Part shown: in pieces, positions 3,620 to 30,828 of the stretch
Layout: each line of letters opens with the position of its first letter
Numbering within the stretch: the first letter of the stretch is position 1
From: an uncultured Chloroflexia bacterium
GTDB lineage: Bacteria > Chloroflexota > Ktedonobacteria > Ktedonobacterales > JADMIN01
Reading direction: 5' to 3'
Assembly (NCBI GenBank): GCA_963718915.1
Contig: CAVRAI010000015.1
Coordinates: 510,001 to 542,000, forward strand
Length of the DNA stretch: 32,000 nt
Program-made: the position numbers and the translations under genes
Notes under the pieces: generated by a model
The model's database searches: none
The model's input: the letters and a program-made list of their open reading frames with translations, nothing else
Told to the model about the DNA's origin: nothing

Positions 3620-4372
3620 ATGATTCTTCGCGTTTTTCGCGCGCGGTTGAAGCCGGGAGCGCGCCAGGCGTTCGAAAAGCTCTGCTACGATGTGAGCATC
3701 CCGCTGTTGCGCTCGCAGCCGGGAATGGTCACGCTACATGTCGGGCGGCCACTGCCGGAATACCCCGACGAGTTCGTCCTCGTCTCTGTCTGGACCGATC
3801 TCGAAAGTCTCAAGGGATTCGCGGGCGACACCTGGGATCATCCGCTGATTCTGCCCGGCGAGGCCGTGCTGGTGCAGGAAACGACGGTGCAGCACTACGA
3901 CGAAGACCGTCACCTGCTTCAGGATTCCCCACTGCTGCCTGCCGACCTGCTCAAACAGATGGAGCAGCGGTTCGTCTGCGATCTGGCGCTCACCGACGAG
4001 CAATGGGCGCGCATCCAGCCGTTGCTGCCCGCCGCCCGCAAAGAGGGCCGCCCGCGCGCCGACGACCGCCGCACGCTGGAGGGCATCCTCTACGTGCTGC
4101 GTACTGGTTGCCGCTGGAACGACCTCCCGGCGGAATATGGGAGTGGGGTCACGTGTTGGCGTCGCCTCACTCAATGGGAGGCTGACGGTTCCTGGGATCG
4201 CATCTGGAAGATACTCGTGGCGACACTCGATCCACAGGCAAAGCTGGCCTGGGCGCAGGCGTTTCTCGCGGGAACCATCGTCCCCGTCCGACGTGGCGCG
4301 CACGAGCGCTCCGTCACATTGCGGCGGGCTGGACGTTTGCCTGATGGTCCGGCGACGCGCGCGCTTCGTTGA
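3620..4372 (+). CDS. Chimeric ORF: ABM (antibiotic-biosynthesis-monooxygenase-like) domain reading through into an IS transposase remnant
   Basis: ATG 3620 preceded by GGAGG (3606-3610). The first ~100 aa (MILRVFRARLKPGARQAFEKL...FVLVSVWTDLESLKGFAGDTW...VQHYD) look like a complete ABM/Dabb-fold domain. From codon 114 (ATG 3959) the same frame encodes a transposase N-terminus. Confidence 0.7.
   Translation: MILRVFRARLKPGARQAFEKLCYDVSIPLLRSQPGMVTLHVGRPLPEYPDEFVLVSVWTDLESLKGFAGDTWDHPLILPGEAVLVQETTVQHYDEDRHLLQDSPLLPADLLKQMEQRFVCDLALTDEQWARIQPLLPAARKEGRPRADDRRTLEGILYVLRTGCRWNDLPAEYGSGVTCWRRLTQWEADGSWDRIWKILVATLDPQAKLAWAQAFLAGTIVPVRRGAHERSVTLRRAGRLPDGPATRALR
3959..4372 (+). mobile_element. Truncated IS5-family (IS4/IS5 superfamily, DUF4096-type N-terminus) transposase remnant
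   Basis: LTDEQWARIQPLLPAARKEGRPRADDRRTLEGILYVLRTGCRWNDLPAEYGSGVTCWRRLTQWEADGSWDRIW is the conserved N-terminal DNA-binding region of IS5-group transposases. The sequence decays after AFLAGTIVPVRRG (canonical ...FLDG..VPAKKGG, so the first catalytic Asp reads Ala). No DDE domain follows in any frame before the next gene, and no terminal inverted repeats were identified. Confidence 0.75.
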
Positions 4373-10527: not shown

Positions 10528-10662
10528 TACTCCATGCGTATCGGCGATTGTCGCTTGTGTTGAATGGAATGCGCCAGTTCTCCCCTTGCGCCATCCATGT
10601 CATGTTGGGCGCCGCAAAGTGCGCGAGAGTAGGGCCAGAAGTGGATAGATTTGGTACGAGAC

Positions 10663-11754
10663 ATGGAACGAACACACGATGATGACCGCTGGAAAGGCTT
10701 CTTCACCCAGGAGCGCGCCCGCCTCATTGAAGCGCTTGGCATGATCGCGGACGGCGGAATCGTCGAGCATATCGAGCAGGTGGGAGCGACCAGCGTGCTG
10801 GGTCTTCTCGGACAGCCATCTATCGACATCGCTATCTCCGCGTGGCCTTTTCCGCTGGAGGAGCCTGAACGTCGCGCCATCGAGTCGTTGGGCTACGAGC
10901 TTGACGCGGGCTTTTCACGTCCTCAGGAACAGCGTTTTCTGCAGACGGACGCGCCATTTCGACTCTACGTGGCCGAGGCAGGAAGCCCATTGTGGGCGGA
11001 TTTCGTGCTGGTTCGCGACTACCTGCGTCACGATGAGGCGGCGCGGAAGGCTCTTTCCGCCCGCAAACAGGAGTGGGCCGGCAATACCGAGTCATCCGGA
11101 TATCACGAGGCCAAGGGAGAGTGGTTTGATCAGCTTGCGGGTGATGCCCACCAGTTCTGGATTGAGCGGGAGCAGTTCAAGCCTCTCCTGCGTGTGGCTG
11201 AGGATCTGCGTGATATGCCCTGTCCGTGGTATATCTGTGGCGGCTGGGCGCTGGATCTCTTCCGCGACCAGGTGTCACGTGTTCACCTCGACGTGGATCT
11301 GATCGTGCCACGCGCCGACCAGCTTGCCATGCAAAAGCACCTGTCGGGTCGAGGCTGGTCACTGGTGACAGCGTCGCTTGATGGCCCGCGACTGGAGCCA
11401 TGGCCGCTGTACATTCGCCTCGAACCGCCGCGCCACCAGTTTCACGCCCTTCGCGATGGCGCGTTCATCGATATCCTACTGACCGATCTCGATGGCGCCT
11501 GGCACTACCGGCGCGAACCGTCCATTATCCGCGACCTGAGCCGCATCGGACTTCGATCAGTAGATAGCATCTCGTTTCTCGCGCCTGAACTTGTGCTGCT
11601 CTTCAAAAGCGCCAACACCTCTGGCAGGGAGCGCATCAAAGACCAGCGAGATTTCGAAGGCGTATATACGAGTCTGGAGCCAGAACGGCGTGCCTGGTTG
11701 CGATGGGCTTTGACGGCGGTTGACCCATCACATCCGTGGATCGAGCGGCTCTAG
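10663..11754 (+). CDS. Two-domain protein: GrpB-family domain fused to an ANT(2'')-like (aminoglycoside-2''-adenylyltransferase family) nucleotidyltransferase domain
   Basis: N-terminal half: IEQVGATSVLGLLGQPSIDIAISAW ... FVLVRDYLRHDEAARKALSARKQEW (GrpB/UPF0157 pattern). C-terminal half: CPWYICGGWALDLFRDQVSRVHLDVDLIVPRAD, resembling the W.GGGWA.D...G...R.H.D.DL motif of the AadB/ANT(2'')-Ia family. Start is ATG 10663 or TTG 10651; no clear SD. Confidence 0.75.
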   Translation: MERTHDDDRWKGFFTQERARLIEALGMIADGGIVEHIEQVGATSVLGLLGQPSIDIAISAWPFPLEEPERRAIESLGYELDAGFSRPQEQRFLQTDAPFRLYVAEAGSPLWADFVLVRDYLRHDEAARKALSARKQEWAGNTESSGYHEAKGEWFDQLAGDAHQFWIEREQFKPLLRVAEDLRDMPCPWYICGGWALDLFRDQVSRVHLDVDLIVPRADQLAMQKHLSGRGWSLVTASLDGPRLEPWPLYIRLEPPRHQFHALRDGAFIDILLTDLDGAWHYRREPSIIRDLSRIGLRSVDSISFLAPELVLLFKSANTSGRERIKDQRDFEGVYTSLEPERRAWLRWALTAVDPSHPWIERL

Positions 11755-14006: not shown

Positions 14007-14684
14007 ATGTCCTTGCCATCGTCTACCACATCCACTGTTCCCCCGCGTCGGCTGATTATCTTCGACCATGACGGGCTGATGGTCAACACCGAGGATGTCG
14101 TCTACGCCGCGCTCGTCCAGCTTTTTGAGGAATATGGCTGCGCGTTTCCGTGGGACTATTACATCACGTCGCTGGGGATGCCTGTCGCGGAGTCGCTGGC
14201 GATGTATCTACGCGACCTGCCGCTCGGTTTGTCGATGGATGAGCTGGTCACGCTCCGCAGCGAACGCGTCCAGGCACGCATAGATACCGACCTGCGCCCG
14301 ATGCCGGGACTCGCGCCACTGCTCGATGCGTTACAAGCGCGCGGCGATCTGCTGGCGGTGGCGACATCCGGGACACGCTCGCACATCGACATGAGCCTGG
14401 TGCGGTTCGGCCTGACCAGCTACTTCGACGCCGTGGTCTGCATCGACGACGTGGCGCGCGGCAAGCCACACCCCGACCTCATCCTGGAGGTGCTCCGACG
14501 TACAGGGGCCGCCGCCAGCGACGCCATCATGCTCGAAGACGCTCCACGCGGCGTCGAGGCCGCCCACCGCGCTGGGGTGTTCTGCATCGCCGTGCCGACC
14601 CACGGCGTCCTTTTGGACGAGTTCGCTCTGGCCTCGGCCATCGCCCGCGATCTTAACGCCGTCCAACGGCTGCTGGTGGGGTAG
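14007..14684 (+). CDS. HAD-superfamily hydrolase, subfamily IA (beta-phosphoglucomutase/phosphatase-like)
   Basis: LIIFDHDGLMVNTE (DxDG motif I), VATSGTR (motif II), GKPHPD (motif III Lys) and LEDAPRGVEAAHRAG (motif IV). Its last 225 nt are repeated at 16282-16506. Confidence 0.9.
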   Translation: MSLPSSTTSTVPPRRLIIFDHDGLMVNTEDVVYAALVQLFEEYGCAFPWDYYITSLGMPVAESLAMYLRDLPLGLSMDELVTLRSERVQARIDTDLRPMPGLAPLLDALQARGDLLAVATSGTRSHIDMSLVRFGLTSYFDAVVCIDDVARGKPHPDLILEVLRRTGAAASDAIMLEDAPRGVEAAHRAGVFCIAVPTHGVLLDEFALASAIARDLNAVQRLLVG

Positions 14685-14685
14685 C
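14461..14685 (+). repeat. Direct repeat copy A (3' end of the HAD gene), partner at 16282-16506
   Basis: Hand alignment of 14461-14685 against 16282-16506 is gap-free with 14 mismatches in 225 nt (about 94%). Both copies end at the same TAG. Confidence 0.9.
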
Positions 14686-14775
14686 GATCAAAAGCCCAGC
14701 ATTAGCCAATGTCTATCTGGCATCATATATCCATACTCGTTCCATTTGATATAGCATGGGCGATCACCTGAAAGA

Positions 14776-14805
14776 TTGACAACCACCTAGAGCGCGATGT
14801 ATTTT
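14776..14805 (+). promoter_or_regulatory. Candidate sigma70-type promoter for the first gene in the insert
   Basis: TTGACA (14776-14781), 18-nt spacer, TATTTT (14800-14805), about 75 nt upstream of ATG 14882 in an AT-rich stretch. Confidence 0.35.
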
Positions 14806-14881
14806 ACATCAGGTTGCTTTGGGTAACCGCCGATTCAGTTCAGGATGTGTTGAAATCGGCGTTTATAGAAAGGCTGTCTTG

Positions 14882-15640
14882 ATGAAGCGGACATGGTATC
14901 GCGCTCTTATCGGCCTCGGATGTTGCGTAATTGCTATTTTCGGTATTATTAGCACCGGGGGCACTACTCAAGCCGCAGCAAATCCTGACCCTACTGTGGT
15001 TGTTGTGCGCGATTCCACGCCTCTTGGATGTTTAGAGCGCCGAGGCCTACTCCAGGGAACTACATGGGTGACAACGTCAACATTCGCTTGTCCAGCGGGT
15101 ACGCGCATGAGTCTTGTGCAGGTGCTGTTGTCCGAGGCAAAAGCTAACCACGAAGCCTATGTGGTAATGCCTTCGCAATCAAGTTCGCGCGCCGAGCAAG
15201 ATGCAGCAATGGTAAATATTCAGGCACTAGCAAAAGCAGCCAATGCAACGTTTCAGTCTGCTAATTCAGTTGTTCCGCTGAGCAGTTGCTCCCCACGCAC
15301 CCAGTATCTAGCCATCTACAATGGCAACACCGCCTGGGATTCGCAGAACAAGTATGACATGAACGTGGACTACGACACCCATTCCGATTGTAGCGTTTAC
15401 ATCCACCTCAGCGCCATTACTGGAGAATACATCCATAGTTACTTCTATTGGGGTTGGGATCTTTATGCTTCATGGCAGTCGCCGAAGCTTTGTACGCCAG
15501 TGACCAACGGTACTAAGGGCTGGAACCCTAATACTACGCACAATTCGGGCTACTATTACGAGCAATGGATGTATAGTGGCTCAAATTGTACCGTGTTCGA
15601 CCACGATTCGTACTACAATGTGGGCCCGTTGTACCCGTAA
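14882..15640 (+). CDS. Secreted orphan protein, Cys- and Tyr/Trp-rich (252 aa)
   Basis: ORF 14819..15640. Start placed at ATG 14882, giving MKRTWYRALIGLGCCVIAIFGIISTGGTTQAAA (signal-peptide-like). The mature part has 8 Cys and aromatic-rich segments (YFYWGWDLYASW, GYYYEQWMY). GC is visibly lower than in flanking genes. No family recognised. Confidence 0.6.
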   Translation: MKRTWYRALIGLGCCVIAIFGIISTGGTTQAAANPDPTVVVVRDSTPLGCLERRGLLQGTTWVTTSTFACPAGTRMSLVQVLLSEAKANHEAYVVMPSQSSSRAEQDAAMVNIQALAKAANATFQSANSVVPLSSCSPRTQYLAIYNGNTAWDSQNKYDMNVDYDTHSDCSVYIHLSAITGEYIHSYFYWGWDLYASWQSPKLCTPVTNGTKGWNPNTTHNSGYYYEQWMYSGSNCTVFDHDSYYNVGPLYP

Positions 15641-15740
15641 ACTAAGTCGACAATTCGCCCCATCGTCGCGGGGAGGTGCCATCCGCCTTAAGAGCCCTCC
15701 CGCGATGGCTCTTATGATGCGAACACAAGGAGCAGAGAGC

Positions 15741-16169
15741 ATGACACAAAGGGTGATCCTCCTAATCAGTGTTTGTATTGCATTGGTTATTGTTATTGCC
15801 GCTGGGACATGGTTGGTACTAAACCCTAATAGCATATTTGCTGCTAATCGCGGCCAATCTATGCCTACTACCGATCAGGTGCGCGGTTCAATACAATGCC
15901 AGACGCCAATCACAACTGCATGTTCTGTGACCATTACCAATGATGCGGTTTCCCACAACACATACGACTGGCAGTTGGTCAGTTTAGCCCCAGCAGCCAC
16001 CCGCAGTTCGTCCTCGTCAGGGACACTGTCTCCCGGCGCTACCGCGAATATTCAGGTAACATACCCTGATGCCATCATGCACATATGCCCAATAATGCTT
16101 ACCTTTTCGATGCGCCCGGAGTCGTCGACCTCGTCTCACAGCTTGGTACTTACATGGCGCTGTTCTTGA
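15741..16169 (+). CDS. Signal-anchored orphan protein (142 aa)
   Basis: ORF 15576..16169. Start placed at ATG 15741, 8 nt after AAGGAG (15727-15732), giving MTQRVILLISVCIALVIVIAAGTWLVL (TM helix). It continues with a Ser/Thr-rich domain containing GTLSPGATANIQVTYP, which looks like a beta-sandwich. No family recognised. Confidence 0.55.
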   Translation: MTQRVILLISVCIALVIVIAAGTWLVLNPNSIFAANRGQSMPTTDQVRGSIQCQTPITTACSVTITNDAVSHNTYDWQLVSLAPAATRSSSSSGTLSPGATANIQVTYPDAIMHICPIMLTFSMRPESSTSSHSLVLTWRCS

Positions 16170-16281
16170 TTTACAGGTTCTTGAGATTCAGTCCTTCCGA
16201 CGACATGGATCCGACTGATTTTTACCTGTGACCAGCCAGAAGTGGGTCTGGCTCGCAGCGCCACCAATGTTGTAACGTGCG

Positions 16282-16505
16282 GCAGGCCACATCCCGACCT
16301 CATCCTGGAGGTTCTGCGGCGCACAGGGGCCGCCGCCAGCGACGCCATCATGCTCGAAGACGCTCCACGCGGCGTCGAAGCGGCCCACCGCGCTGGGGTG
16401 TTCTGCATCGCCGTGCCGACCCACGGCGTCCCTTTGGACGAGTTCGCTCTGGCCTCGGCCATCGCCCGCGATCTCCACGTCGTCCAGCGGCTGCTGGCGG
16501 GGTAG
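16282..16505 (+). pseudogene. Orphan 3' fragment of a HAD hydrolase gene (direct repeat copy B)
   Basis: Encodes GRPHPDLILEVLRRTGAAASDAIMLEDAPRGVEAAHRAGVFCIAVPTHGVPLDEFALASAIARDLHVVQRLLAG. That differs at 5 residues from the C-terminus of the intact gene at 14007..14684. Upstream homology fades after a 5-nt gap (ACGTG[GCGCG]CGGCA). There is no N-terminal HAD domain. Confidence 0.85.
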
Positions 16506-16551
16506 CATCTGATACCAATTTCGTTTGAATTGTTGTCCTTCGGGGGCAGGT

Positions 16552-16592
16552 CGTAGCGTAAACGCTACGGCGAATTTCTCCGCCCATTCGCC
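16552..16592. repeat. Second small hairpin cluster (REP-like or terminator-like)
   Basis: CGTAGCG-TAAA-CGCTACG (16552-16569) is immediately followed by GGCGAAT-N10-ATTCGCC (16569-16592). Same style of short GC stems and 4-nt loops as 1953-2163. The 9-mer TGTCCTTCG occurs next to both clusters (2162-2170 and 16534-16542). Confidence 0.35.
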
Positions 16593-17076
16593 GTGGCCTT
16601 CAGGCTACGGCGCGCTCGCCAACGACAACAACTTAGCCGGATTTGGTATGAGCTGCTGTTGCTAAGGATGGATTCCAGCTATATACGCTGTTTCGAGCGC
16701 TCTCCTGTTCTCATCAAACCACGCGCTCAATGGATGGTCCTCCTTCCATGCCCTCTCGATCCCCATCAGACCGCAAATGTTGCGAACGTTGCAAATGCTT
16801 AGTGCTCTCCATGCTCTCCATGCTCGCAGAATCGCTGGCAGAGGCACGTTTGGCCCACAGCGCCCTGCGGGTCACTGCTGAGCGCATGCGGGCAAGATTT
16901 CACCAGTGAATTCATCATATAGGACTAACTAGTGTCAGGTTGCATTACGCATTCTGTCATGTTACTTTTGGCGTACAAGTCCTCGACGAGGGCTGTCTGC
17001 TTGCGCGTTGACACCTGGGGCGCTCGAACGGACGCGGGCAGGCATTGTGTGGTGTGGAGATCGCAAGGAGTGGGGT

Positions 17077-19776
17077 ATGCCGAGAGTATGGACCCGACGA
17101 GCGTTGATCCCGGTAGTCACTATCGTAGCGCTCGCGGCCATCATCACGTCCGTCGCGTTGGTGCGCGGGCAGACCGCGCAGGCAAACACAGCAACCGCTC
17201 GTCCCGGATATTATCAGCGGGACAACGCATTGGTCAATCGTCTTCTGAAAGCGTCTCATCAAACTTCCGCAAGCACGAACGCCGCAGCCGCGAATGTCGC
17301 GAGTGATCCAGACCAGGGCGGCGACGATGATCAGGCGGAGACCCCGGAGCAGTTCGCCTATGCGCAGCGCGCCGCGCCCGGTGGTTATATCGCTCCGTCG
17401 GCGGTCATCAATGGTCAGCAACAGGCCAACAGCATGGCCAGCGCTGGTTCGGGCTTCCCCTGGCAGGAAGTCGGCCCGCGGACGCTCAACAACGGCAACT
17501 ACTTCCCTGAGCCAGTCTCCGGGCGTCTGCTCGCTGTCGCGTTTGATCCGACCAACTCGCACATCATTTATGTTGGATCGGCGCAGGGCGGCATCTGGAA
17601 GACCACCGACGGCGGCCAGCACTGGAAGCCGCTCAGTGACTTCGAGCCTTCGCTGGCGATCAATACCATCGCCATCGATGGCAAGAACCCGAACATCATC
17701 TTCGCGGGTACCGGCGAAGATAACCTTTCGTGCGACTCCTATCAGGGTCAGGGTATCCTGCGTTCCACCGATGGTGGCAACACCTGGAAGGTGTTGGGCA
17801 GAAGTCTCTTCGCGGGTACGGGCATTGGCAACATCTTGCTCGATCCCCGCTATGAGGGCAACGCCAACAACGAGCACCTGATTATCGGCGCGGGTTTCGC
17901 CGGGCGCTCCAATAGCTCGACCGAGTCGTGCGACAATTCGCTGCCCGCTGGCCAGAACCCACCATACGGGGTGTTCACCTCCAACGATGGCGGCCAGAGC
18001 TTCACCGAGACGCTCAGCGTCGGCTCATCCGCGGACTTCCCCTTTGAGCTGGGCACCAGCGATATGGTCATGTCGCCGTCTAACCCGAACGTGATCTATG
18101 CCGCCGAGCAGATCGAGGGCATCTTCAAGAGCACCGACGCAGGCAAGACCTGGACGAACCTCAACACCGCCAGCAGTGGGATGCCCGCTCCTGAGAGCGG
18201 CTTCGACCGCATCCAGCTGGCAATCGCGAAGTCGAATCCCAATGTGTTGTATAGCGCCTACTCGAACGTGGTTTTCCTTGGCACACACATGCAGGCGTTC
18301 CGCACGAACAATGCTGGCACGACCTGGAAGGATTTGACGAGTGTTCCAGATGTCTGCGACGGGCAGTGCTGGTATGACATGCCCATCGCCGTCAGCCCGA
18401 CCGACCCGAACTCGGTCTTCATTGGTGGCAACGCCAACTACTCGTACATCTTTACGCTCTTTGGCGAACCGCCTGACCCAGCCGACTGCGCGACCATCGC
18501 CGCGCTGAGCAATTTGCCCGCCGACTGTAACGCAACCATCGCGAAGTCCACCAACGGCGGCAAGACCTGGCAGGACATCGGCCTCGGTGATGTGGGGACC
18601 AACGGCTTCCCGAAGGGCCAGTACACGCTGCACCCAGACGATCACGCGATTGTCTTTGACCCGAACAATCCAAACATCATGTATACCGGCACCGATGGCG
18701 GCCTGTTCTACACCACGAATGGCGGCCATAGCTGGCATGACCTGAATCCTGGCCTTGGCACCCTCCAGTTCCAGGCCATCTCGGTCAGCCCCAACGGGCA
18801 GATCTTTGGTGGCACGCAGGACAACGGCACGGAGCAATTCAAGCCGTCAACTGGCCAGACGTGGAACAGCGTGGATGGCGGTGACGGCGGCCTGACGCAG
18901 ATCGACCCCTCGAATCCGAACACAATCTACCATACCTATGCTGGCGGGAGTCTAGTGCGCTCTGACGATGACGGCCAGACGTGGAACGAGGTTGACGCTC
19001 CGTTCTTCGACGACTTCGCCTCCTTCTACCCCGCGTTCGCGCTGGCGCAGTCGAAGCCCAGTACGCTCTACTACGGCACCTATCGCATCTGGCGGACGGA
19101 CAATAAGGGCGGAACTGGCGCGGCGTCTGACTGGACGGCCATCAGCCCGGCGCTGGAACCCGCGAACTGCGGCTTCAACTGCATCGTGGATGTCGCCGTC
19201 TCGCCGGTGAATCCGAATGTGGTGGTTGTCGCGGGCGGCGATGGGAAGATCTGGCAGAGCACGAACGCTGATTCGGCCAGCGCAACCTGGACGGCGATCA
19301 ACAACGCGACGACGCCTAACCGCTTCCCGACGCAGATCATCTTCGCGCCAGGCTCGCAGAACACGATCTATATCACGTTCTCGGGCTTCAACAGCAACGC
19401 TGGCTCCTCGGCGCCGGGTCATGTCTTCCGCAGCAGCAATATCGGCGCAGCGGCGCCAACCTTCACCGAGGTTGATGGTCAGAATGGTGGGAACTCGTTC
19501 TTCGCCATCCCCGACCTGCCCACGAACAGCGTGCTCGTAGACCCGCAGTTGCCGAGCGTGCTCTTCGTGGCGGCGGACTACGGCGTCTATGCCTCTCCCG
19601 ATAGCGGCAAGCACTGGTTCCGCATCGACTTCAACCTGCCGCACTCGGAGGTTTACCTGCTTCAGTACAATCAACAAACAATAGCATTGTGGCCGCCACA
19701 CACGGCCGCGGTGTCTGGCAGCTCCCGTTGCCAGGTAGCGCTTCATTCAACCAGTTGGTTCACTAATGGTGGATGA
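17077..19776 (+). CDS. Large secreted Asp-box (BNR) repeat beta-propeller protein (sialidase/sortilin-Vps10/GH74-like fold)
   Basis: ORF 17008..19776. Start placed at ATG 17077, 6 nt after AAGGAG (17065-17070), giving MPRVWTRRALIPVVTIVALAAIITSVALVRGQTAQA (signal). There are at least nine S/T-x-D-x-G-x-T/S-W boxes: TTDGGQHW, STDGGNTW, SNDGGQSF, STDAGKTW, TNNAGTTW, STNGGKTW, TTNGGHSW, SDDDGQTW, SPDSGKHW. The last ~30 codons appear frame-shifted (see findings), and the likely true stop is TAA 19764-19766. Confidence 0.9.
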   Translation: MPRVWTRRALIPVVTIVALAAIITSVALVRGQTAQANTATARPGYYQRDNALVNRLLKASHQTSASTNAAAANVASDPDQGGDDDQAETPEQFAYAQRAAPGGYIAPSAVINGQQQANSMASAGSGFPWQEVGPRTLNNGNYFPEPVSGRLLAVAFDPTNSHIIYVGSAQGGIWKTTDGGQHWKPLSDFEPSLAINTIAIDGKNPNIIFAGTGEDNLSCDSYQGQGILRSTDGGNTWKVLGRSLFAGTGIGNILLDPRYEGNANNEHLIIGAGFAGRSNSSTESCDNSLPAGQNPPYGVFTSNDGGQSFTETLSVGSSADFPFELGTSDMVMSPSNPNVIYAAEQIEGIFKSTDAGKTWTNLNTASSGMPAPESGFDRIQLAIAKSNPNVLYSAYSNVVFLGTHMQAFRTNNAGTTWKDLTSVPDVCDGQCWYDMPIAVSPTDPNSVFIGGNANYSYIFTLFGEPPDPADCATIAALSNLPADCNATIAKSTNGGKTWQDIGLGDVGTNGFPKGQYTLHPDDHAIVFDPNNPNIMYTGTDGGLFYTTNGGHSWHDLNPGLGTLQFQAISVSPNGQIFGGTQDNGTEQFKPSTGQTWNSVDGGDGGLTQIDPSNPNTIYHTYAGGSLVRSDDDGQTWNEVDAPFFDDFASFYPAFALAQSKPSTLYYGTYRIWRTDNKGGTGAASDWTAISPALEPANCGFNCIVDVAVSPVNPNVVVVAGGDGKIWQSTNADSASATWTAINNATTPNRFPTQIIFAPGSQNTIYITFSGFNSNAGSSAPGHVFRSSNIGAAAPTFTEVDGQNGGNSFFAIPDLPTNSVLVDPQLPSVLFVAADYGVYASPDSGKHWFRIDFNLPHSEVYLLQYNQQTIALWPPHTAAVSGSSRCQVALHSTSWFTNGG

Positions 19777-20042
19777 GATTGGCGGCGCGAGGCAACTTGC
19801 CCGCCATCTCACCTGACCAGGCGAGACCACGGCGGATTCCCCAGGCGCCCTTGGGGGATTCGCCGTTCTCGTCATGCGGATATGTCATCGGTCGCGGTAT
19901 GTCGTGGTATGTCGTGGCGTGACCAGGAACACACTGCATGTTTGCGGCGTCGTAGACCTGGTGACCCATAATGCGCACGGATAAAATACATGTGGGACAG
20001 ACAACGCGGAATGACTGGCGGCGAGGAAAGCGAGGCGAGTCT

Positions 20043-20606
20043 ATGTCCGACCCTGACATCGAAGCGCGCGGCAGAGGCGTGGGACGTTACCGTGCGATGT
20101 GTTTTTGTGTTGTGCTGGCGCTGGCTCTAATCGTGGCGGGTTGCGGCGTCACGACCGCGAATGGCGGAGAGGCGTCCACGGGCACACCATCGCCGACGAT
20201 CAATGCCACGGCTACGCCAAGTCTCGCGCCCCCGCCAGCCTCAACCGCGACCCGGACCCCCACTGGAGGCTCAAGCGCCGTGGCATGCCCTGAGAGCAGC
20301 CAGGGTCCTGGTAATCCAACGCTCATTCTGACGCCAACGACACCAGATCGTGCAGGGAGCGCGCACGTCGGCGACATCGTGCAGGTGCGGTTGCCCACCA
20401 CCTCGAAGTGGTCGTATGCGCCCGCGCAATCCTCCGGCGCGCTCAGCCCAACCCAGCCCAGTGGCGTCCTGATTCACTCGCTCAACGCCTGCGTCTGGAC
20501 CTTCAAGGCCGTCGCGGCAGGGAACCCAGACGCTGCCGTTTTCTGGTCAGGCGATCTGCAAGGTGGGACAGCCCTGCGCCGACTACAGAATCGCGATGAC
20601 ATTTAG
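20043..20606 (+). CDS. Lipoprotein, function unknown
   Basis: ORF 19971..20606. Start placed at ATG 20043, giving MSDPDIEARGRGVGRYRAMCFCVVLALALIVAGC (lipobox IVAGC). A Pro/Thr/Ser linker follows, then a small domain (GDIVQVRLPTTSKW...CVWTFKAVAAG). The C-terminus appears frame-shifted at 20520-20522, with the likely true stop at TAG 20620-20622. Confidence 0.65.
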   Translation: MSDPDIEARGRGVGRYRAMCFCVVLALALIVAGCGVTTANGGEASTGTPSPTINATATPSLAPPPASTATRTPTGGSSAVACPESSQGPGNPTLILTPTTPDRAGSAHVGDIVQVRLPTTSKWSYAPAQSSGALSPTQPSGVLIHSLNACVWTFKAVAAGNPDAAVFWSGDLQGGTALRRLQNRDDI

Positions 20607-23387: not shown

Positions 23388-26300
23388 CTATTCCGCCAAG
23401 TCCTCCTTGCCCCCCTCGTTTCCCTCGTCCCCTTCGTCGTCTTCGACGCCGAGCATCGCGTCGATTTCCGCTAGCGCCTGCTCGCGCTCGCGCTGCCAGC
23501 GGCGGAGTGAGAGGCGATGCACCTGCCAGCCCGCGCGCTCCAGAATCGTCTGACCGTTGACCGTATCGAGCGAGACCTCGCCGGGAATCGGCGCGTGGCG
23601 TTCGGGGTCGCCGTCGCAAGCGATGGCCAGCGCTCGCCCGCCGTACTGCGCCACCACGTCCACTGCGAAGCCCGCGACTGGGTAGCCTATATATACCTCG
23701 TAGCCGCCGCGCTGCCGCAGCGCCTGGCCAATCTCGCGCTCGAAGGCGGTGCCACCATCCGTGTGATCCTCGGGACGATCCGGCTCCAGGCATTCCCCCG
23801 CATAGTCGAGGTAGCGGCCCAGCAAATGCTCGGGCGGCAGGTGGCGGGCATCCAGCCCGGTGAAGATCACCTGGCGACGGCGGGCGCGTGTCACCGCGAC
23901 GTTAAAGAGATTGTCGTTATTCATGAAGGTGACGGTGCTGCGGTGTGATGATGGGTCGGCGCAGAAGCTGAGCAGCATAATGTCGCGCTCGTCGCCCTGG
24001 TAGGTATGCGCCGTCCCAATGGCGATGTCGTGGTCCTGAAGAATCTTTGACTTGAGCTTCTGCGCCAGCATCCGCGTCAGATAGTTCACCTGGTCGCGAT
24101 AAGGCGAGAGGACGCCAATGGTCGAGCGTTCGCTGGGGAGCAGCTTCGCCTCGGCTTTGGCGATGTTGTTGATCTCCTTGAGAATCGCCTCAGCCTCCTG
24201 CGGGTTGAAGCCCTCTTTGCCGCGTTTGCCGTTCACCTTGCGCATCTCCACGCTACGAGCGCCGAGTGTATCGGGGCGGCGTGTCATCACGCGCAGCGCC
24301 TGGCCGTAGAATGTGCGGTTGCTGAACTCGATAATCTGCGGCAGGCTGCGATAATGTTCATCCAGCAGGACGACGTCATCCTGCGAGGGCAGCGCGCCGT
24401 TCACCACATCCAGCAGGCTGTGCGTGCGGTAGTTCCACTGCGACCGCTGGCTGGCGGAGAGGCCATGTTGCGAGGCGAGCGCCGCCTGGCGATCCTCGCG
24501 CAGGAACGAGAGATGGCGTAGCTGCTTCGGGTCGCCGCAGACGATGGCCCGCTGGCCGCGATAGAGCAGCGGCAGCGCGCTGGAGACATCACACTGCGAC
24601 GCCTCATCCACGATCACCAGATCGAACATCTCGCGGTCGAGCGGCAGCATCTCGGCGACGTGTGGGTTGGTCGTAGCCCAGATGGGGAACGTGTTGAGCA
24701 GCGCCGAGAAATCCAATTCGGCGAAGATTTTGTCCTGCTCGGCGGTGGTGCGCGCCTCCAGCGCCGTCTTGAAGAGCGAGAGCGTGCGCCGATTGAGCCG
24801 GAGCGCCTCGGCAAGCGCCTCGCGCCGTCGCGCCGCCAGCAACTCACCCACCAGCGCGCCACGGTCCGCGCGCAAGCGGGCATGCCGCGTCAAGAGCGCG
24901 TTCACATCGTCCCGCGCCAGCAACGTGCGCTCGGTCTGTATCAGCCCCGCGCGAAGCTGTTCGCGCCGGAGCACCGCCTCCAGGTGGGGCAGGTCGCTCT
25001 CGGCCAGCCCAATCCGCGAGGCGATGTCGCTGGCGGCCTGCTCGCGTTTGCGTCCGGCCATCCAGCTTACCACAGGCAGTTTGCCGGTGTCGCGGTGGAT
25101 CTCCTCATAGGCAGCTTCGAGCGCCTCCGGGCCGAGCGTGGCTGCTGCCGCCTCATTATAGGCGGGCGGATGGATGCGTCGGAGCGCGGCGACATGCTGT
25201 GTCCAGCGCGTCTCGGCATCCAGCAGGAAGCGAATCTCGGCGTCAAGCTGCGCCAGTTCTTCATCGGCGGCGCGTAGACGGTCTTCGAGCATCTCGATCT
25301 CGCCGGGCCGCGGTCGTGGTGGCGCGCCAGTGCCGTCGAAGAGGTTATCGAGGAATTTCTTCAACTCGTTGCGATAGCGCCGGTCGCCGCCGCGTAGGAT
25401 GACCGTCAGGCTGCCAAGGTGTGGCTGGAGCTTCTCGACGACGACATCTACCGCCTTGTTCATCTTGGAGGAGAGCAGCACCGTCTGCCCGCGCGCCACG
25501 GCGTCCAGGATGATCTGCGCGATGGTGAACGACTTGCCGGTGCCGGGAGGGCCAATCACCAGCGTCAGTGGGCGGCGCTCGGACTGGCGCAGCACGCGCG
25601 TCTGGGCGTTGCTCAACTCCGCGCCACTGAGGATCGGCCGCTCGATCTCCACCTCGGGCAGCATCCCGGTGACGGGGGCGCGCTCGGCGCGGGCGGCGTC
25701 GGTGAAGATGGCGGCGAGCGGCGCCGACATATCGCCGCGTCCGGCCATCATCTGTAGCTCGGTGAGCACGCCACGCGCCTCCTGGGGTCGCCGCACCAGC
25801 GCCATCGCCGAGGCGCAGAGCAACTGCACGGGGCTATCCATCAGGTCGCGCAGGGCCGCCTCGGTCTGTAGCTCCGGCCATGCCTGCAAATCGTCGGTAC
25901 GCAGGTCGGGAATCAGTTCGGCGAGGACGGCGGCGAACTCGCGGATGGCGGCGGTCTCGAAGGGCGCGGTGGGCGCCTGCGCCAGAATCGCCTCGGCGTA
26001 GGCCTGCGCCTGCTCGTCGTTTTCGGCGTCGATCAGCGAGGCCAGCAGCGGGAAGTTGATGTGCTGCTCGTCCAGATCGACGCTCAGATACGCGTGGGAG
26101 CCTTCCTGCTCGATACGCGCGGGCCAGTAGAGCAGTGGCGCGCAGAAGACCTCGCCCTTGCGGCGCGCGGTCTCTGGGCGGCCTCGCCCCACGAGAAAGA
26201 TCGACCCCCAGATGAGGTACTTCTCGCGGCGATTGACGTCGGCGGCGTTCTGCGCGGTGACGCCGGTGCTCAGCGGCACCTCCAGCCGGTCAAGTTGCCC

Positions 26301-26603
26301 GGTGGCCAGCGGCTCGACGCCATCGGCGAAGACCAGATATTCCGCCTGGTTCTTATCGAGGATGTTGGTGAGGGTGCCTCCGCGTGAGTCGGCGGAGAAG
26401 CAGTCCTGGAAGTAGCGACAGACCCCGGAAAAGAGCGAGGATGTTGGCCCCGGCGGCATTGGGCGCGCGGGAATGGCGCCGCCCTCGACCCACTGGCCGA
26501 CCGGCGTGAGGTCAGCGCGCGCGACGACATCCACCACTACGGGCTGAATCGGCGGGCGCTCGCGCGGGTCGTCGTCAGTCTGCCTTCCACGTCGAAATAC
26601 CAT
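23388..26603 (-). CDS. Superfamily-1 (Upf1/DNA2-like, AAA_11+AAA_12) helicase with C-terminal DUF559/Vsr-like endonuclease-fold domain
   Basis: ORF 23388..26783. Start moved to ATG 26603 because GAGGAGG lies about 8 nt upstream on the minus strand. Motifs: VIGPPGTGKS (encoded near 25535-25555), VIVDEASQ (near 24595-24617), CGDPKQL, YRSLPQIIEFSN, IGVLSPYRDQV, GTAHTYQGDERD, NVAVTRARR. C-terminus: FEREIGQALRQRGGYEVYIGYPVAGFAVDVVAQYGGRALAIACDGDPERH, followed by an acidic tail. Confidence 0.9.
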   Translation of the reverse strand: MVFRRGRQTDDDPRERPPIQPVVVDVVARADLTPVGQWVEGGAIPARPMPPGPTSSLFSGVCRYFQDCFSADSRGGTLTNILDKNQAEYLVFADGVEPLATGQLDRLEVPLSTGVTAQNAADVNRREKYLIWGSIFLVGRGRPETARRKGEVFCAPLLYWPARIEQEGSHAYLSVDLDEQHINFPLLASLIDAENDEQAQAYAEAILAQAPTAPFETAAIREFAAVLAELIPDLRTDDLQAWPELQTEAALRDLMDSPVQLLCASAMALVRRPQEARGVLTELQMMAGRGDMSAPLAAIFTDAARAERAPVTGMLPEVEIERPILSGAELSNAQTRVLRQSERRPLTLVIGPPGTGKSFTIAQIILDAVARGQTVLLSSKMNKAVDVVVEKLQPHLGSLTVILRGGDRRYRNELKKFLDNLFDGTGAPPRPRPGEIEMLEDRLRAADEELAQLDAEIRFLLDAETRWTQHVAALRRIHPPAYNEAAAATLGPEALEAAYEEIHRDTGKLPVVSWMAGRKREQAASDIASRIGLAESDLPHLEAVLRREQLRAGLIQTERTLLARDDVNALLTRHARLRADRGALVGELLAARRREALAEALRLNRRTLSLFKTALEARTTAEQDKIFAELDFSALLNTFPIWATTNPHVAEMLPLDREMFDLVIVDEASQCDVSSALPLLYRGQRAIVCGDPKQLRHLSFLREDRQAALASQHGLSASQRSQWNYRTHSLLDVVNGALPSQDDVVLLDEHYRSLPQIIEFSNRTFYGQALRVMTRRPDTLGARSVEMRKVNGKRGKEGFNPQEAEAILKEINNIAKAEAKLLPSERSTIGVLSPYRDQVNYLTRMLAQKLKSKILQDHDIAIGTAHTYQGDERDIMLLSFCADPSSHRSTVTFMNNDNLFNVAVTRARRRQVIFTGLDARHLPPEHLLGRYLDYAGECLEPDRPEDHTDGGTAFEREIGQALRQRGGYEVYIGYPVAGFAVDVVAQYGGRALAIACDGDPERHAPIPGEVSLDTVNGQTILERAGWQVHRLSLRRWQREREQALAEIDAMLGVEDDEGDEGNEGGKEDLAE

Positions 26604-26802
26604 GAGTGCTGCCTCCTCGTACCGCCTGCGCGCCACGTTATGTTCGGGCATGTAGCGCGCACCCGGCAGCAGGCAGTGTAGGCACGGCGGCTGGCGACCG
26701 TCAATCTTGTGCCCATTATGGGCCAGTACCCATGGGCGATGACGAGGCAAAAGCACGCCGCTGGGGAGCGATGTCGGTGGCATGGTGTCATCGTCGAAGC
26801 TC

Positions 26803-26811
26803 TGCTATAAT
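26803..26811 (+). promoter_or_regulatory. Extended -10 promoter element (TGcTATAAT) for the CPBP gene
   Basis: TGCTATAAT at 26803-26811, about 64 nt upstream of ATG 26875. AGGAAGG lies before the ATG. No good -35, which is consistent with an extended -10 promoter. Confidence 0.4.
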
Positions 26812-26874
26812 CAGCCAGCGCGCATAGCAGGCGATAGCCGCACTGGAGAGAACGAATAGCAGGAAGGCGACCCG

Positions 26875-27671
26875 ATGTCCCAACCTTTTCCGCAACGTCG
26901 GCCACTGCTCTTTATCGGCCTGCTTCTGTTTCTTATACTCGGTATATTCCTCATCACATTCGCTGTAACCGCACTCGGGCATTGGCCAGTGACCGCAGCC
27001 AGCCTTATCAGTGAAATTTTGCTGGGCCTGGTCGCCGTGTTCTTGCTCAGCCGTTTCCAATGGTGGCATGTCGCCGGATTTCGTATGCCTCGGTATTCTC
27101 CGGCCTTCTTATGTCTGCTAGCGCCGTGTTTTGTCCTGGTTACCGATGCCAATACTGTATCCCAGTATTGGGACTATCTCCCTGGCCGCAACAATGCCCT
27201 GTTCTTCGCCATCTTTGCGATGTTGGTTGGCTTTGTCGAAGAAAACTACTTTCGCTGGGCTGATACTGCGTACTCTCCTGGTGAGAGGGCCATGGTTGGC
27301 AGCCATCGTCTCGTCCGTTGTATTCGGCGCGATGCACCTGTTACATCTTATCGAAGGACAGAATCTGGTCGCAACGGCTATCCCAGGCCATCTGGGCGAC
27401 GGCCCTCGGCTTCCTCTTCGCCGCCGTAGCTCTGCGCACCCAAAGCATCCTGCCGCTGATCATAATCCATGGATTGATCGACTTTGTTGCGTTCCTTGCC
27501 CTCAACGGCACGGTCATCACCTACACCCCGAGTTCTGGCGACGTCACAGAGACTGTCGTCGAAGTGCTCGTATACGTCACGCTCGGCATCATCGCGATGC
27601 GCGGAATACACACGCCTGACCTCGAACCCGATCCCGATGGTCGTGACGGGAAGCTGGTCGAGGTGAGGTGA
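26875..27671 (+). pseudogene. CPBP-family intramembrane glutamic endopeptidase (CAAX protease / Abi family), two frame breaks as sequenced
   Basis: Three consecutive frames together encode one typical CPBP protein. Frame of 26875: ...FAMLVGFVEENYFR (EExxxR motif). Frame of 27131: GLILRTLLVRGPWLAAIVSSVVFGAMHLLHL (FxxxH motif). Frame of 27318: SQAIWATALGFLFAAVALRTQSILPLIIIHGLIDF (HxxxD/N motif). The breaks lie at about 27256-27259 (TGGG) and 27382-27384 (CCC). GC is lower than in neighbours: 30 of 60 at 26881-26940. Confidence 0.8.
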
Positions 27672-30444: not shown

Positions 30445-30828
30445 TCAACCGCCGCCGGAATTCACGGTAGGAATCGGTGTTGCGGGCGGAGGGAGCGTTG
30501 CGGTCGGCACGGCTTGCGGCGTCGCCGTTGGGCTGGGATGGCCGCTACCACCACCGCCTCCACCACTGCCACCTGAAGCGCCCTTGACCGTGGCGGTTGG
30601 TGTACCCTCTGTGTCAGGCACAACCGTGAGCACCGTTTGGATCGTCGCGGTCGGCGTTGGCTGAGCGCCTAACTGCGCGTCCGCGGTTGAGCGATTGAAT
30701 AGACCGATCACAAAGACTATCAACAGCACAATCGTCAGCGCGAGTAGAACATACGTTCTTGGCACGATTGGCCGGCGACCACCACCTGGTGGATTGCTGC
30801 CATTGGGCACAGTTGTCACAGGCGCCAC
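30445..30828 (-). CDS. Signal-anchored Pro/Thr/Gly-rich low-complexity protein
   Basis: GTG start at 30828. RRPIVPRTYVLLALTIVLLIVFVIGLF is a TM helix. Then PTPTAT-type and GGSGGGGGGSG low-complexity sequence. Lies directly downstream of, and on the same strand as, the GT-C-like gene. Weak SD. Confidence 0.45.
   Translation of the reverse strand: MAPVTTVPNGSNPPGGGRRPIVPRTYVLLALTIVLLIVFVIGLFNRSTADAQLGAQPTPTATIQTVLTVVPDTEGTPTATVKGASGGSGGGGGGSGHPSPTATPQAVPTATLPPPATPIPTVNSGGG

Follow-up and report, generated by a model that had tools for sequence, protein, structure and literature searches.

A duplicated HAD-phosphatase 3' end around a conserved low-G+C gene pair in Ktedonobacterales: a candidate for homology-driven 3'-end displacement and concerted evolution

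The window (the whole 32-kb stretch of DNA analysed here) comes from a soil Chloroflexi genome (Ktedonobacterales) and contains a complete HAD-family gene, followed by two cargo genes and then by an orphan fragment of the HAD 3' end, all on the same strand (Table 1). The HAD gene product gives a Pfam HAD_2 match of 8e-37 and a match to NCBIfam TIGR01509 above its cut-off, and its orthologues in Ktedonobacterales MAGs and metagenomes show 74–84% amino-acid identity. Further downstream lies a gene whose product has Pfam Sortilin-Vps10 and BNR matches; relatives of this protein reach an amino-acid identity of 91% in contig L058, 82% in L048 and 66% in L047.

Table 1. Coordinates of the features at the locus, numbered from the first nucleotide of the window.
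Feature	Position	Strand	Description
HAD gene	14007..14684	+	225 aa, intact; HAD-family (subfamily IA) phosphatase; last 231 nt = copy A
Copy A	14455..14685	+	Repeat copy forming the 3' end of the live HAD gene
Left junction and cargo leader	14686..14881	+	G+C 0.44; promoter-like TTGACA-N18-TATTTT at 14776-14805
cargo1	14882..15640	+	252 aa, secreted, signal peptide, conserved cysteines; uncharacterised family
cargo2	15741..16169	+	142 aa, N-terminal membrane helix and Ig-like beta-sandwich; conserved partner of cargo1
Right spacer	16170..16275	+	Ends at non-homologous junction 16275/16276
Copy B	16276..16506	+	Putatively displaced HAD 3' end; fragment without 5' part
Central repeat tract	14502..14653, paired with 16323-16474	+	A and B 98% identical; putative gene-conversion tract
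BNR gene, downstream neighbour	17077..19776	+	899-aa BNR/sortilin-type protein; one reference point for the ancestral context and the variable locus

The two HAD 3' ends form a single direct repeat of 231 nt, which the repeat search returned as gapless and 94% identical, and our own count gives 15 mismatches between copies A and B. No other two-copy repeat family longer than 44 nt was found in the 7-kb region. The first-pass annotation had described a gapless repeat of the last 225 nt of the gene with 14 mismatches, five of them amino-acid changing. Recounting over 14461–14685 gave exactly these numbers (the replacements are K/R, L/P, N/H, A/V and V/A), and the repeat turned out to extend to 231 nt. 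As also stated there, the same TAG terminates both copies in the alignment; the likeness ends one base past it, and the next 60 nt are unalignable. The two copies encode the same C-terminus, with 5–6 amino-acid differences, and the Pfam match of copy B is limited to HAD_2 positions 132–178. Identical runs between the copies reach 56 nt. The distal (left) 47 nt of the repeat hold 7 of the 15 differences and no identical stretch longer than 20 nt (14472–14491).

A repeat of this kind might also be produced by duplicated or collapsed contig ends, an objection raised together with the original claim. We found nothing in its favour and regard its probability as practically negligible. A Logan contig from a separate assembly (L001, run ERR11563127) is 100% identical to window positions 14624–16352 and carries A-specific bases at its left and B-specific bases at its right, so that both junctions are spanned; moreover, the same layout recurs in contigs of three other samples.

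The insert between the repeats comprises 1.59 kb with about 50% G+C and two genes. Over 14801–16000, G+C is 0.48–0.52 versus about 0.60–0.65 on both flanks, and the GC3 of cargo1 (0.53) and cargo2 (0.51) is lower than that of the HAD gene (0.80) and the BNR gene (0.77). The insert is therefore compositionally distinct, as had been reported, and the promoter-like site reported for it is present in its leader. Both the left junction sequence and the TTGACA box are kept in contigs L080, L081 and L082 (alignment A3), and an AAGGAG lies upstream of the cargo2 ATG. Neither cargo gene has a match in Pfam, NCBIfam or PHROGs. The cargo1 family comprises 98 cluster representatives at E<=1e-3, and its alignment (A2) contains five invariant columns, four of them cysteines. 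The AF2 model of cargo1 has a pLDDT of 87.5 and gives no significant fold match to the PDB in Foldseek, whereas the cargo2 model gives weak, generic beta-sandwich matches. We flag the pair as an uncharacterised conserved two-gene module with a confidently predicted fold for which Foldseek gave no match among solved structures. No indication of a toxin or immunity role came from Pfam, NCBIfam, PHROGs or the structure matches.

The cargo genes are not the orphans that they had been taken for. Cargo2 homologues lie directly 3' of cargo1 homologues in L029–L036 and L077, and the pair is found at two other loci, where (L029–L040, L077) no captured gene end was seen, neither a HAD fragment nor a flanking repeat. 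In L029–L031 the pair occupies an Eis-like acetyltransferase / DUF4097 locus. Comparison with L080–L082 gave dN/dS values of 0.12–0.17 for cargo1, and those for cargo2 were 0.27–0.37, which shows that purifying selection acts on both genes. The G+C of the module is about 13 points under that of its hosts at each of three loci. The cargo pair is a conserved, selected and persistently low-GC module, and since low G+C is a lasting trait of the pair, seen at its other loci as well, it is no marker of recent arrival.

The order HAD end, cargo1, cargo2, HAD fragment is also present in other metagenomic lineages, at 84–87% identity. L081 and L082 have the same left junction, and in L082 a single contig with both junctions comprises the A part, the two cargo genes and the B part. 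Its right spacer is conserved to ...CCAGCCAGAAG, after which a deletion of about 65 nt runs across the junction (alignment A4). This deletion at the 5' edge of B shows that copy B is being eroded. An open reading frame at 16242–16505 was considered as a functional mini-ORF of copy B and found to be unsupported, as its 5' part is deleted in L082 and its own substitutions lack a synonymous bias. The lineages with the same junctions are separated by a dS of about 0.3–0.4 (0.29–0.43 for the cargo genes). Since lineages at 84–87% identity have this layout in common, the event is old, and the insert is fixed across related lineages. Judged by these shared junctions, the insertion is not recent and no fresh scar of a mobile element. 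No relative closer than about 87% identity was present in the collections searched, and the donor arrangement (HAD followed by the cargo, without B) was not found.

The A/B differences were polarised with 12 orthologues. The A lineage has five synonymous and two non-synonymous changes and the B lineage two and three, respectively; therefore, the synonymous bias stems from the live gene, and copy B's own substitutions look neutral. It had been proposed that B diverged elsewhere under coding constraint, and this is not supported by the polarised changes, which put the bias on A. The differences form a mosaic: the central 152 nt contain 3 of them and the 79 terminal nt the other 12. The divergence of orthologues puts 63% of differences in the centre, where 3 of the 15 were observed (binomial p = 7e-4), and all five derived bases common to A and B lie in this near-identical tract. 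Copy A is 94.5% identical to copy B of its own genome versus 86.3% to the A copy of L081 and 81.8% to that of L082, with a dS of 0.16 between A and B versus 0.68 between A and the L082 A copy; the L081 and L082 segments compared are short (73–110 nt), and the A and B parts of L082 do not overlap, so that concerted evolution is directly shown in the window genome only. The pattern points to gene conversion across the central tract of about 150 nt as the process that has maintained the likeness of A and B, and not to independent divergence. Homogenisation of the tract by conversion would be the reason why B looks coding-constrained.

An empty site in relatives had been suggested as a check, and more distant relatives do have such sites: in L047 a complete HAD gene is followed by 165 nt and then the BNR gene, and in L043 by a BNR remnant and then a lipoprotein gene. 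L058 was rejected as a further empty site, since this contig starts 17 nt inside the repeat and may equally well begin in a B copy. Other contigs carry alternative content, namely a 407-aa lipoprotein gene before the BNR gene in L048, and genes for lipoproteins of about 430 aa and 211 aa after HAD in L002–L005, L042, L046 and L054. From the HAD stop codon to the gene for the 211-aa lipoprotein, no fewer than five different arrangements exist among relatives. The locus directly downstream of HAD thus appears to be a gene-content hot spot in a Ktedonobacterales clade, and we flag it as a variable surface- and secreted-protein locus in this order.

The leader of the BNR gene (window position 16911 onwards) lies about 130–165 nt after the complete HAD gene in L047 and L043 and about 400 nt after copy B in the window; the first 400 nt or so past B align only weakly and include an extra hairpin. 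By its position relative to this leader, copy B occupies the ancestral place of the HAD end. The hairpin 3' of copy B is 160 nt long; being absent from L058, L043 and L047 and having no second copy in the window, it was rejected as a part of the insert.

These flanking sequences bear on a purely local origin, according to which the pair was first inserted after HAD, and the HAD end was then copied to a place further downstream by tandem duplication or template switching and decayed there. A and B are indeed mutual closest relatives with five shared-derived bases, and the neutral look of B's own changes would agree with such decay. However, a tandem duplication predicts A's downstream sequence after B, while the likeness stops one base past the stop codon and what comes after B is the ancestral leader of the BNR gene and no cargo sequence. 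The shared-derived bases are accounted for by the conversion tract, and we consider a local origin quite improbable.

Any trace of a mobile element was sought in the window and in databases. All 26 of the 26 large ORFs were scanned, and no recombinase was found in the insert, as noted before, nor in the 32-kb window; the sole mobile-element signal among these ORFs is a DUF4096 remnant at 3620–4372, about 10 kb off. No integrase, transposase, IS element or tRNA gene is present near the insert, and scans of the window for tRNA, tmRNA and Rfam families returned nothing. With cargo1 as a query, tblastn gave no match in 72,556 plasmids or 50,697 phages, and IMG/VR gave none either. Inverted repeats that would pair the ends of 14686–16275 are not found and there is no transposase, so features of a transposon or MITE are absent; to our knowledge, a duplication of 231 nt far exceeds any known target-site duplication. 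As regards the site-specific integration (attL/attR) originally proposed, its geometry stands, i.e., the repeat and an intact HAD gene with a replacement end, but no other defining feature accompanies it.

This geometry resembles that of E. coli icd, in whose 3' end e14 and phage 21 integrate, leaving the icdC fragment (Hill et al. 1989, via PMC13626634). As far as that account describes it, there too the insert supplies the working 3' end, the original end becomes a far-side direct-repeat pseudogene, the differences are mostly silent, and a functional chimeric gene is re-formed when the DNA between the repeats is deleted. In contrast, e14 is described as about 15 kb long with its own integrase and SOS-induced excision, and the insert studied here has 1.6 kb, no recombinase and no phage genes. 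It is conceivable that a larger island or prophage integrated site-specifically in the HAD 3' end, supplying the replacement end, and that it subsequently lost its integrase and most of its cargo through internal deletions. Besides the icd/e14/icdC likeness, such a history would suit a homology that reaches the stop codon and ends there, the atypical composition of the insert with its own promoter-like site, and a presence that varies among relatives. On the other hand, a recombinase is lacking from the insert and the whole window, phage, plasmid and PHROG links are absent, and elsewhere the same two genes are ordinary chromosomal ones without att-like repeats or HAD fragments. The distal repeat end, where a core site is expected, has diverged most, with 7 differences in 47 nt, although a crossover core at this end could have been erased by the event's age. 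Moreover, 3/3 cassette-bearing lineages are equally minimal, which places any decay before their split. We therefore find a decayed integrative element unlikely.

The reading that we favour, with a probability only slightly better than even (about 0.55), is that the 3' end was displaced by homology-driven recombination at a gene-content hot spot and that concerted evolution came after. The first-pass annotation had itself listed homologous recombination among its alternatives, and we infer the recombination route from the geometry and the missing features. The incoming DNA would have carried a closely related HAD 3' end followed by the module, which encodes a cysteine-rich secreted protein and a small Ig-like protein anchored in the membrane. 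On its left, this DNA would have paired in register with the homologous sequence of HAD, and on its right a single illegitimate junction at 16275/16276 would have linked it. It may have arrived in linear form (homology-facilitated illegitimate recombination) or as a circle entering via the HAD homology (Campbell type), and both routes would leave HAD intact with a replacement end (A) and push the original end (B) downstream, dead. Since identical runs of up to 56 nt exist within the 231-nt repeats, a RecA-dependent deletion of the cassette would give back a normal HAD gene.

Displacement of this type has been described for rhs C-termini, through circular intermediates and with no integrase (Jackson et al. 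2009, PMC2935791), and for T6SS effector-immunity genes, where it was attributed to homology-facilitated illegitimate recombination (Kirchberger et al. 2017, PMC5361080). In common with these systems, the locus shows a complete gene with a new 3' end, cargo and the orphaned old end in the same orientation and free of any integrase, as well as a hot spot where conserved flanks enclose differing gene content and an orphan fragment that is contiguous with ancestral downstream sequence (the BNR-gene leader after B). The new end in rhs and T6SS systems brings a different toxin tip with an immunity gene as cargo, and displaced ends form arrays; here, there is one displaced fragment, and both ends, with 94% identity to each other, code for the same C-terminus of the phosphatase. 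That the new and old ends are nearly the same, while those of the known displacement systems differ, counts against the favoured reading. The homology that stops exactly at the stop codon, as with an element-supplied replacement end, also counts against it, as do the age of the event and the lack of a donor arrangement among the findings.

The pair may alternatively travel as a non-autonomous cassette, i.e., cycle with its HAD-end copy as a circle, through A × B excision and re-entry into the HAD gene of related cells, in which case the A–B divergence would reflect donor versus recipient. The identical runs would allow RecA-dependent excision and re-entry, the low G+C persists, and HAD-end likeness does not cleanly split cassette-bearing from cassette-free lineages. 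Nevertheless, neither a circle nor an empty site is in evidence at the strain level, the other loci of the pair lack a captured gene end, and conversion in place explains the mosaic and the shared-derived bases no less well, which makes the cycling scenario a long shot. The same low odds apply to its broader form, in which a compositionally distinct cassette would be spreading among Ktedonobacterales chromosomes by host recombination alone, with a captured host-gene end as its homing homology. If this were true, the repeats, kept alike by conversion, would double as a clean excision switch.

For practical purposes, attL/attR-like geometry with mostly silent differences does not on its own attest to a recent integrase event or to divergence in another host, and an old recombinational insertion, followed by gene conversion with the live gene, fits better here. 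The value of the case lies mainly in this caution for island-calling and in drawing attention to an unstudied protein family. Gene conversion lets dispersed bacterial repeats evolve in concert, tufA/tufB and the rRNA operons being the classic examples. As in those, the copies within the genome are closer to each other than to orthologues from genomes with the same duplication, and identity forms a mosaic along the repeat; unlike in those, one of the partners here is a dead 231-nt fragment of a single-copy gene.

The window holds a single long direct repeat, a gap-free pair of segments (94% identity) formed by the 3' end of a HAD-IA phosphatase gene (copy A) and a displaced HAD 3' end (copy B), with two genes, cargo1 and cargo2, between them. 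For the last 225 nt of each copy, the first-pass annotation had counted 14 mismatches, of which 5 change an amino acid, and our recount agreed exactly; both copies end in the same TAG, and similarity ceases one base past it. The possibility of an assembly artefact, also raised there, was ruled out by L001, a Logan contig from a separate assembly of run ERR11563127, since it is 100% identical to window 14624-16352 and spans both junctions, bearing bases specific to copy A on its left and to copy B on its right. The structure itself is genuine and clear-cut.

Features of the locus and of the surrounding window
Feature	Coordinates	Strand	Size	Properties
Copy A	14455-14685		231 nt	3' end of the HAD gene upstream of the insert
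Promoter-like TTGACA-N18-TATTTT	14776-14805			
cargo1	14882-15640		252 aa	signal peptide, conserved cysteines
cargo2	15741-16169		142 aa	N-terminal membrane helix, Ig-like sandwich
Copy B	16276-16506		231 nt	displaced HAD 3' end
Hairpin	16495-16664		160 nt	near-perfect, 72-nt arms, begins at copy B stop codon
BNR/sortilin gene	17077-19776	+	899 aa	
Lipoprotein gene	19971-20606		211 aa	
ABM/DUF4096 ORF	3620-4372	+		ABM monooxygenase domain (aa 1-67), DUF4096 IS4/IS5-type transposase N-terminal domain (aa 124-196)
GrpB/nucleotidyltransferase-like gene	10651-11754			
SF1 helicase	23388-26783	-	1131 aa	AAA_11/AAA_12, C-terminal MTES_1575 restriction-endonuclease-like domain
Short ORF	26811-27152	-		no Pfam match
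Short ORF	30445-30828	-		no Pfam match

The nearest loci, which share 77-87% nucleotide identity with the window, come from MAGs of Ktedonobacterales (Chloroflexota) and from contigs of soil metagenomes; we compared their gene content from the HAD stop codon to the 211-aa lipoprotein gene. HAD is followed by a ~430-aa BNR-like lipoprotein and then the 211-aa lipoprotein in L002-L005, L042, L046 and L054, by a 407-aa BNR-like lipoprotein and then the 899-aa protein in L048, by 165 nt and then the 899-aa protein in L047, and by a mere remnant of the 899-aa gene and then the 211-aa lipoprotein in L043. Window 14686-19830 is thus a gene-content hot spot relative to L002-L005, L042-L048 and L054, with the ~430-aa lipoprotein, the 899-aa protein, both or neither as alternatives, all secreted or surface proteins. 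As HAD is complete in both L047 and L043 and cargo is lacking, these are true empty sites; L058 is an ambiguous case, since its sequence opens 17 nt into the repeat. Copy B is followed in the window by the conserved leader that precedes the 899-aa gene and starts at 16911, so copy B occupies the ancestral position of the HAD end. Homology halts at the stop codon because insert DNA follows copy A and the ancestral spacer follows copy B. Segment 10528-11800, with the GrpB-like gene, is unaligned to the otherwise syntenic L002-L004 and is another presence/absence difference.

The layout is old and common to related lineages, as it was found in three contigs from other samples at 84-87% identity. 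L081 carries the HAD end, the left junction as in the window and cargo1; L080 carries cargo1 and the start of cargo2; and L082 carries part of A, both cargo genes, the right spacer as in the window and then part of B. The B part of L082 begins about 65 nt later than window B, which indicates a deletion across its right junction. Between the window and these lineages the cargo genes show dS of 0.29-0.43 and dN/dS of 0.12-0.37, and thus they have been kept by selection. At about position 420 of L082, a single-base deletion (GACCC-ACC) in the signal-peptide region shifts the cargo1 frame, reflecting either an assembly error or the onset of cassette decay in the L082 lineage; cargo2 is intact.

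Although the layout is older than the split from L081 and L082, window A is closest to window B (94.5% identity, against 81.8% to the A copy of L082 and 86.3% to that of L081), and dS is 0.16 for A and B versus 0.68 for A and the L082 A copy. The A/B differences are mosaic: the central 152 nt (14502-14653) contain 3 of them and the remaining 79 nucleotides, at the ends, contain 12, whereas in orthologues the centre accounts for 63% of differences (binomial p = 7e-4). The repeat ends are ~15% diverged, near the raw cargo-region divergence of the window from L080-L082. Polarisation with 12 orthologues assigned seven changes to the A lineage (5 synonymous, 2 non-synonymous) and five to the B lineage (2 synonymous, 3 non-synonymous), left 3 ambiguous, and revealed five derived bases shared by both copies, all in the central tract. 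The earlier suggestion that copy B diverged elsewhere under coding constraint does not fit its 2 synonymous versus 3 non-synonymous changes. In our reading, the duplication is old, and its central part was evened out afterwards through gene conversion with the copy under selection; this accounts for the silent look of the A/B differences.

On the left, the insert is joined in register inside HAD; on the right, at 16275/16276, it abuts unrelated sequence. From this geometry, the insert most likely arose by one homologous exchange and one illegitimate junction. A linear fragment could have entered by homology-facilitated illegitimate recombination, or a circle by Campbell-type entry; these are also the routes put forward to explain C-terminal displacement at rhs (PMC2935791) and T6SS effector-immunity arrays (PMC5361080). 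A decayed integrative element that entered site-specifically would leave the same repeat geometry, as e14 does at icd/icdC (PMC13626634), but this origin is unlikely: no recombinase was found in the insert or the 32-kb window, the search for phage or plasmid links of the cargo gave none, the distal end of the repeat has no clear core, and at other loci the cargo genes behave like ordinary chromosomal genes. Of the integration scar without an integrase proposed in the first-pass annotation, the geometry and the missing recombinase hold, and site-specific integration is unsupported. The structure exemplifies known processes, namely 3'-end displacement at a variable locus and then concerted evolution, and represents no new kind of element.

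The cargo genes had been called orphans; however, the cargo1 family has 98 representatives at E<=1e-3, and cargo1 and cargo2 make up a conserved pair that recurs in two other chromosomal contexts. In L029-L040 the pair has a gene for an Eis-like acetyltransferase on one side and a DUF4097 gene on the other (53% identity to the window for cargo1, 35% for cargo2), and L030 and the HAD orthologue L004 are about 50 kb apart on one MAG contig; L077 is the third context. Neither flanking repeats nor HAD fragments were found at these other loci. The two proteins have no match in Pfam, NCBIfam, PHROGs or PDB sequences, and a PDB fold search with the confident AF2 model of cargo1 (pLDDT 87.5) returned nothing significant.

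The insert is compositionally distinct, as had been noted together with its promoter-like motif: G+C is 0.48-0.52 between the copies versus about 0.60-0.65 in the flanks, and cargo1 and cargo2 have GC3 values of 0.53 and 0.51, respectively, versus 0.77-0.80 for neighbouring genes. Since low G+C has been kept over the whole span separating the window from L080-L082, it is no mark of recent arrival. The pair is low in G+C again in L029 (GC3 0.56-0.60 beside 0.75-0.81) and L077 (G+C about 0.50, flanks 0.68 and 0.75), and the module seems to have retained this composition as a lasting trait. At L029 2127-3816, L030 9500-11160 and L077 782-2164 it forms a ~50-55% G+C island in high-GC genomes. The two short ORFs (GC3 0.57-0.58) coincide with G+C dips of 0.54-0.56; they, too, may represent small inserts, either foreign or fast-evolving.

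The hairpin (RNA MFE -83 kcal/mol, z = -6.5) is a separate insertion, as it is absent from the corresponding site in L058, L043 and L047, and is possibly a MITE- or REP-like palindrome. The window has no second copy; one match (55 nt, 80%) is intergenic in L003 (2096-2150). The ABM/DUF4096 ORF resembles the remains of a transposase that are either fused to a host gene or overlap one. The helicase shares 91-92% DNA identity with relatives, versus 78-86% for neighbouring genes, reflecting either unusually strong conservation or recent exchange.
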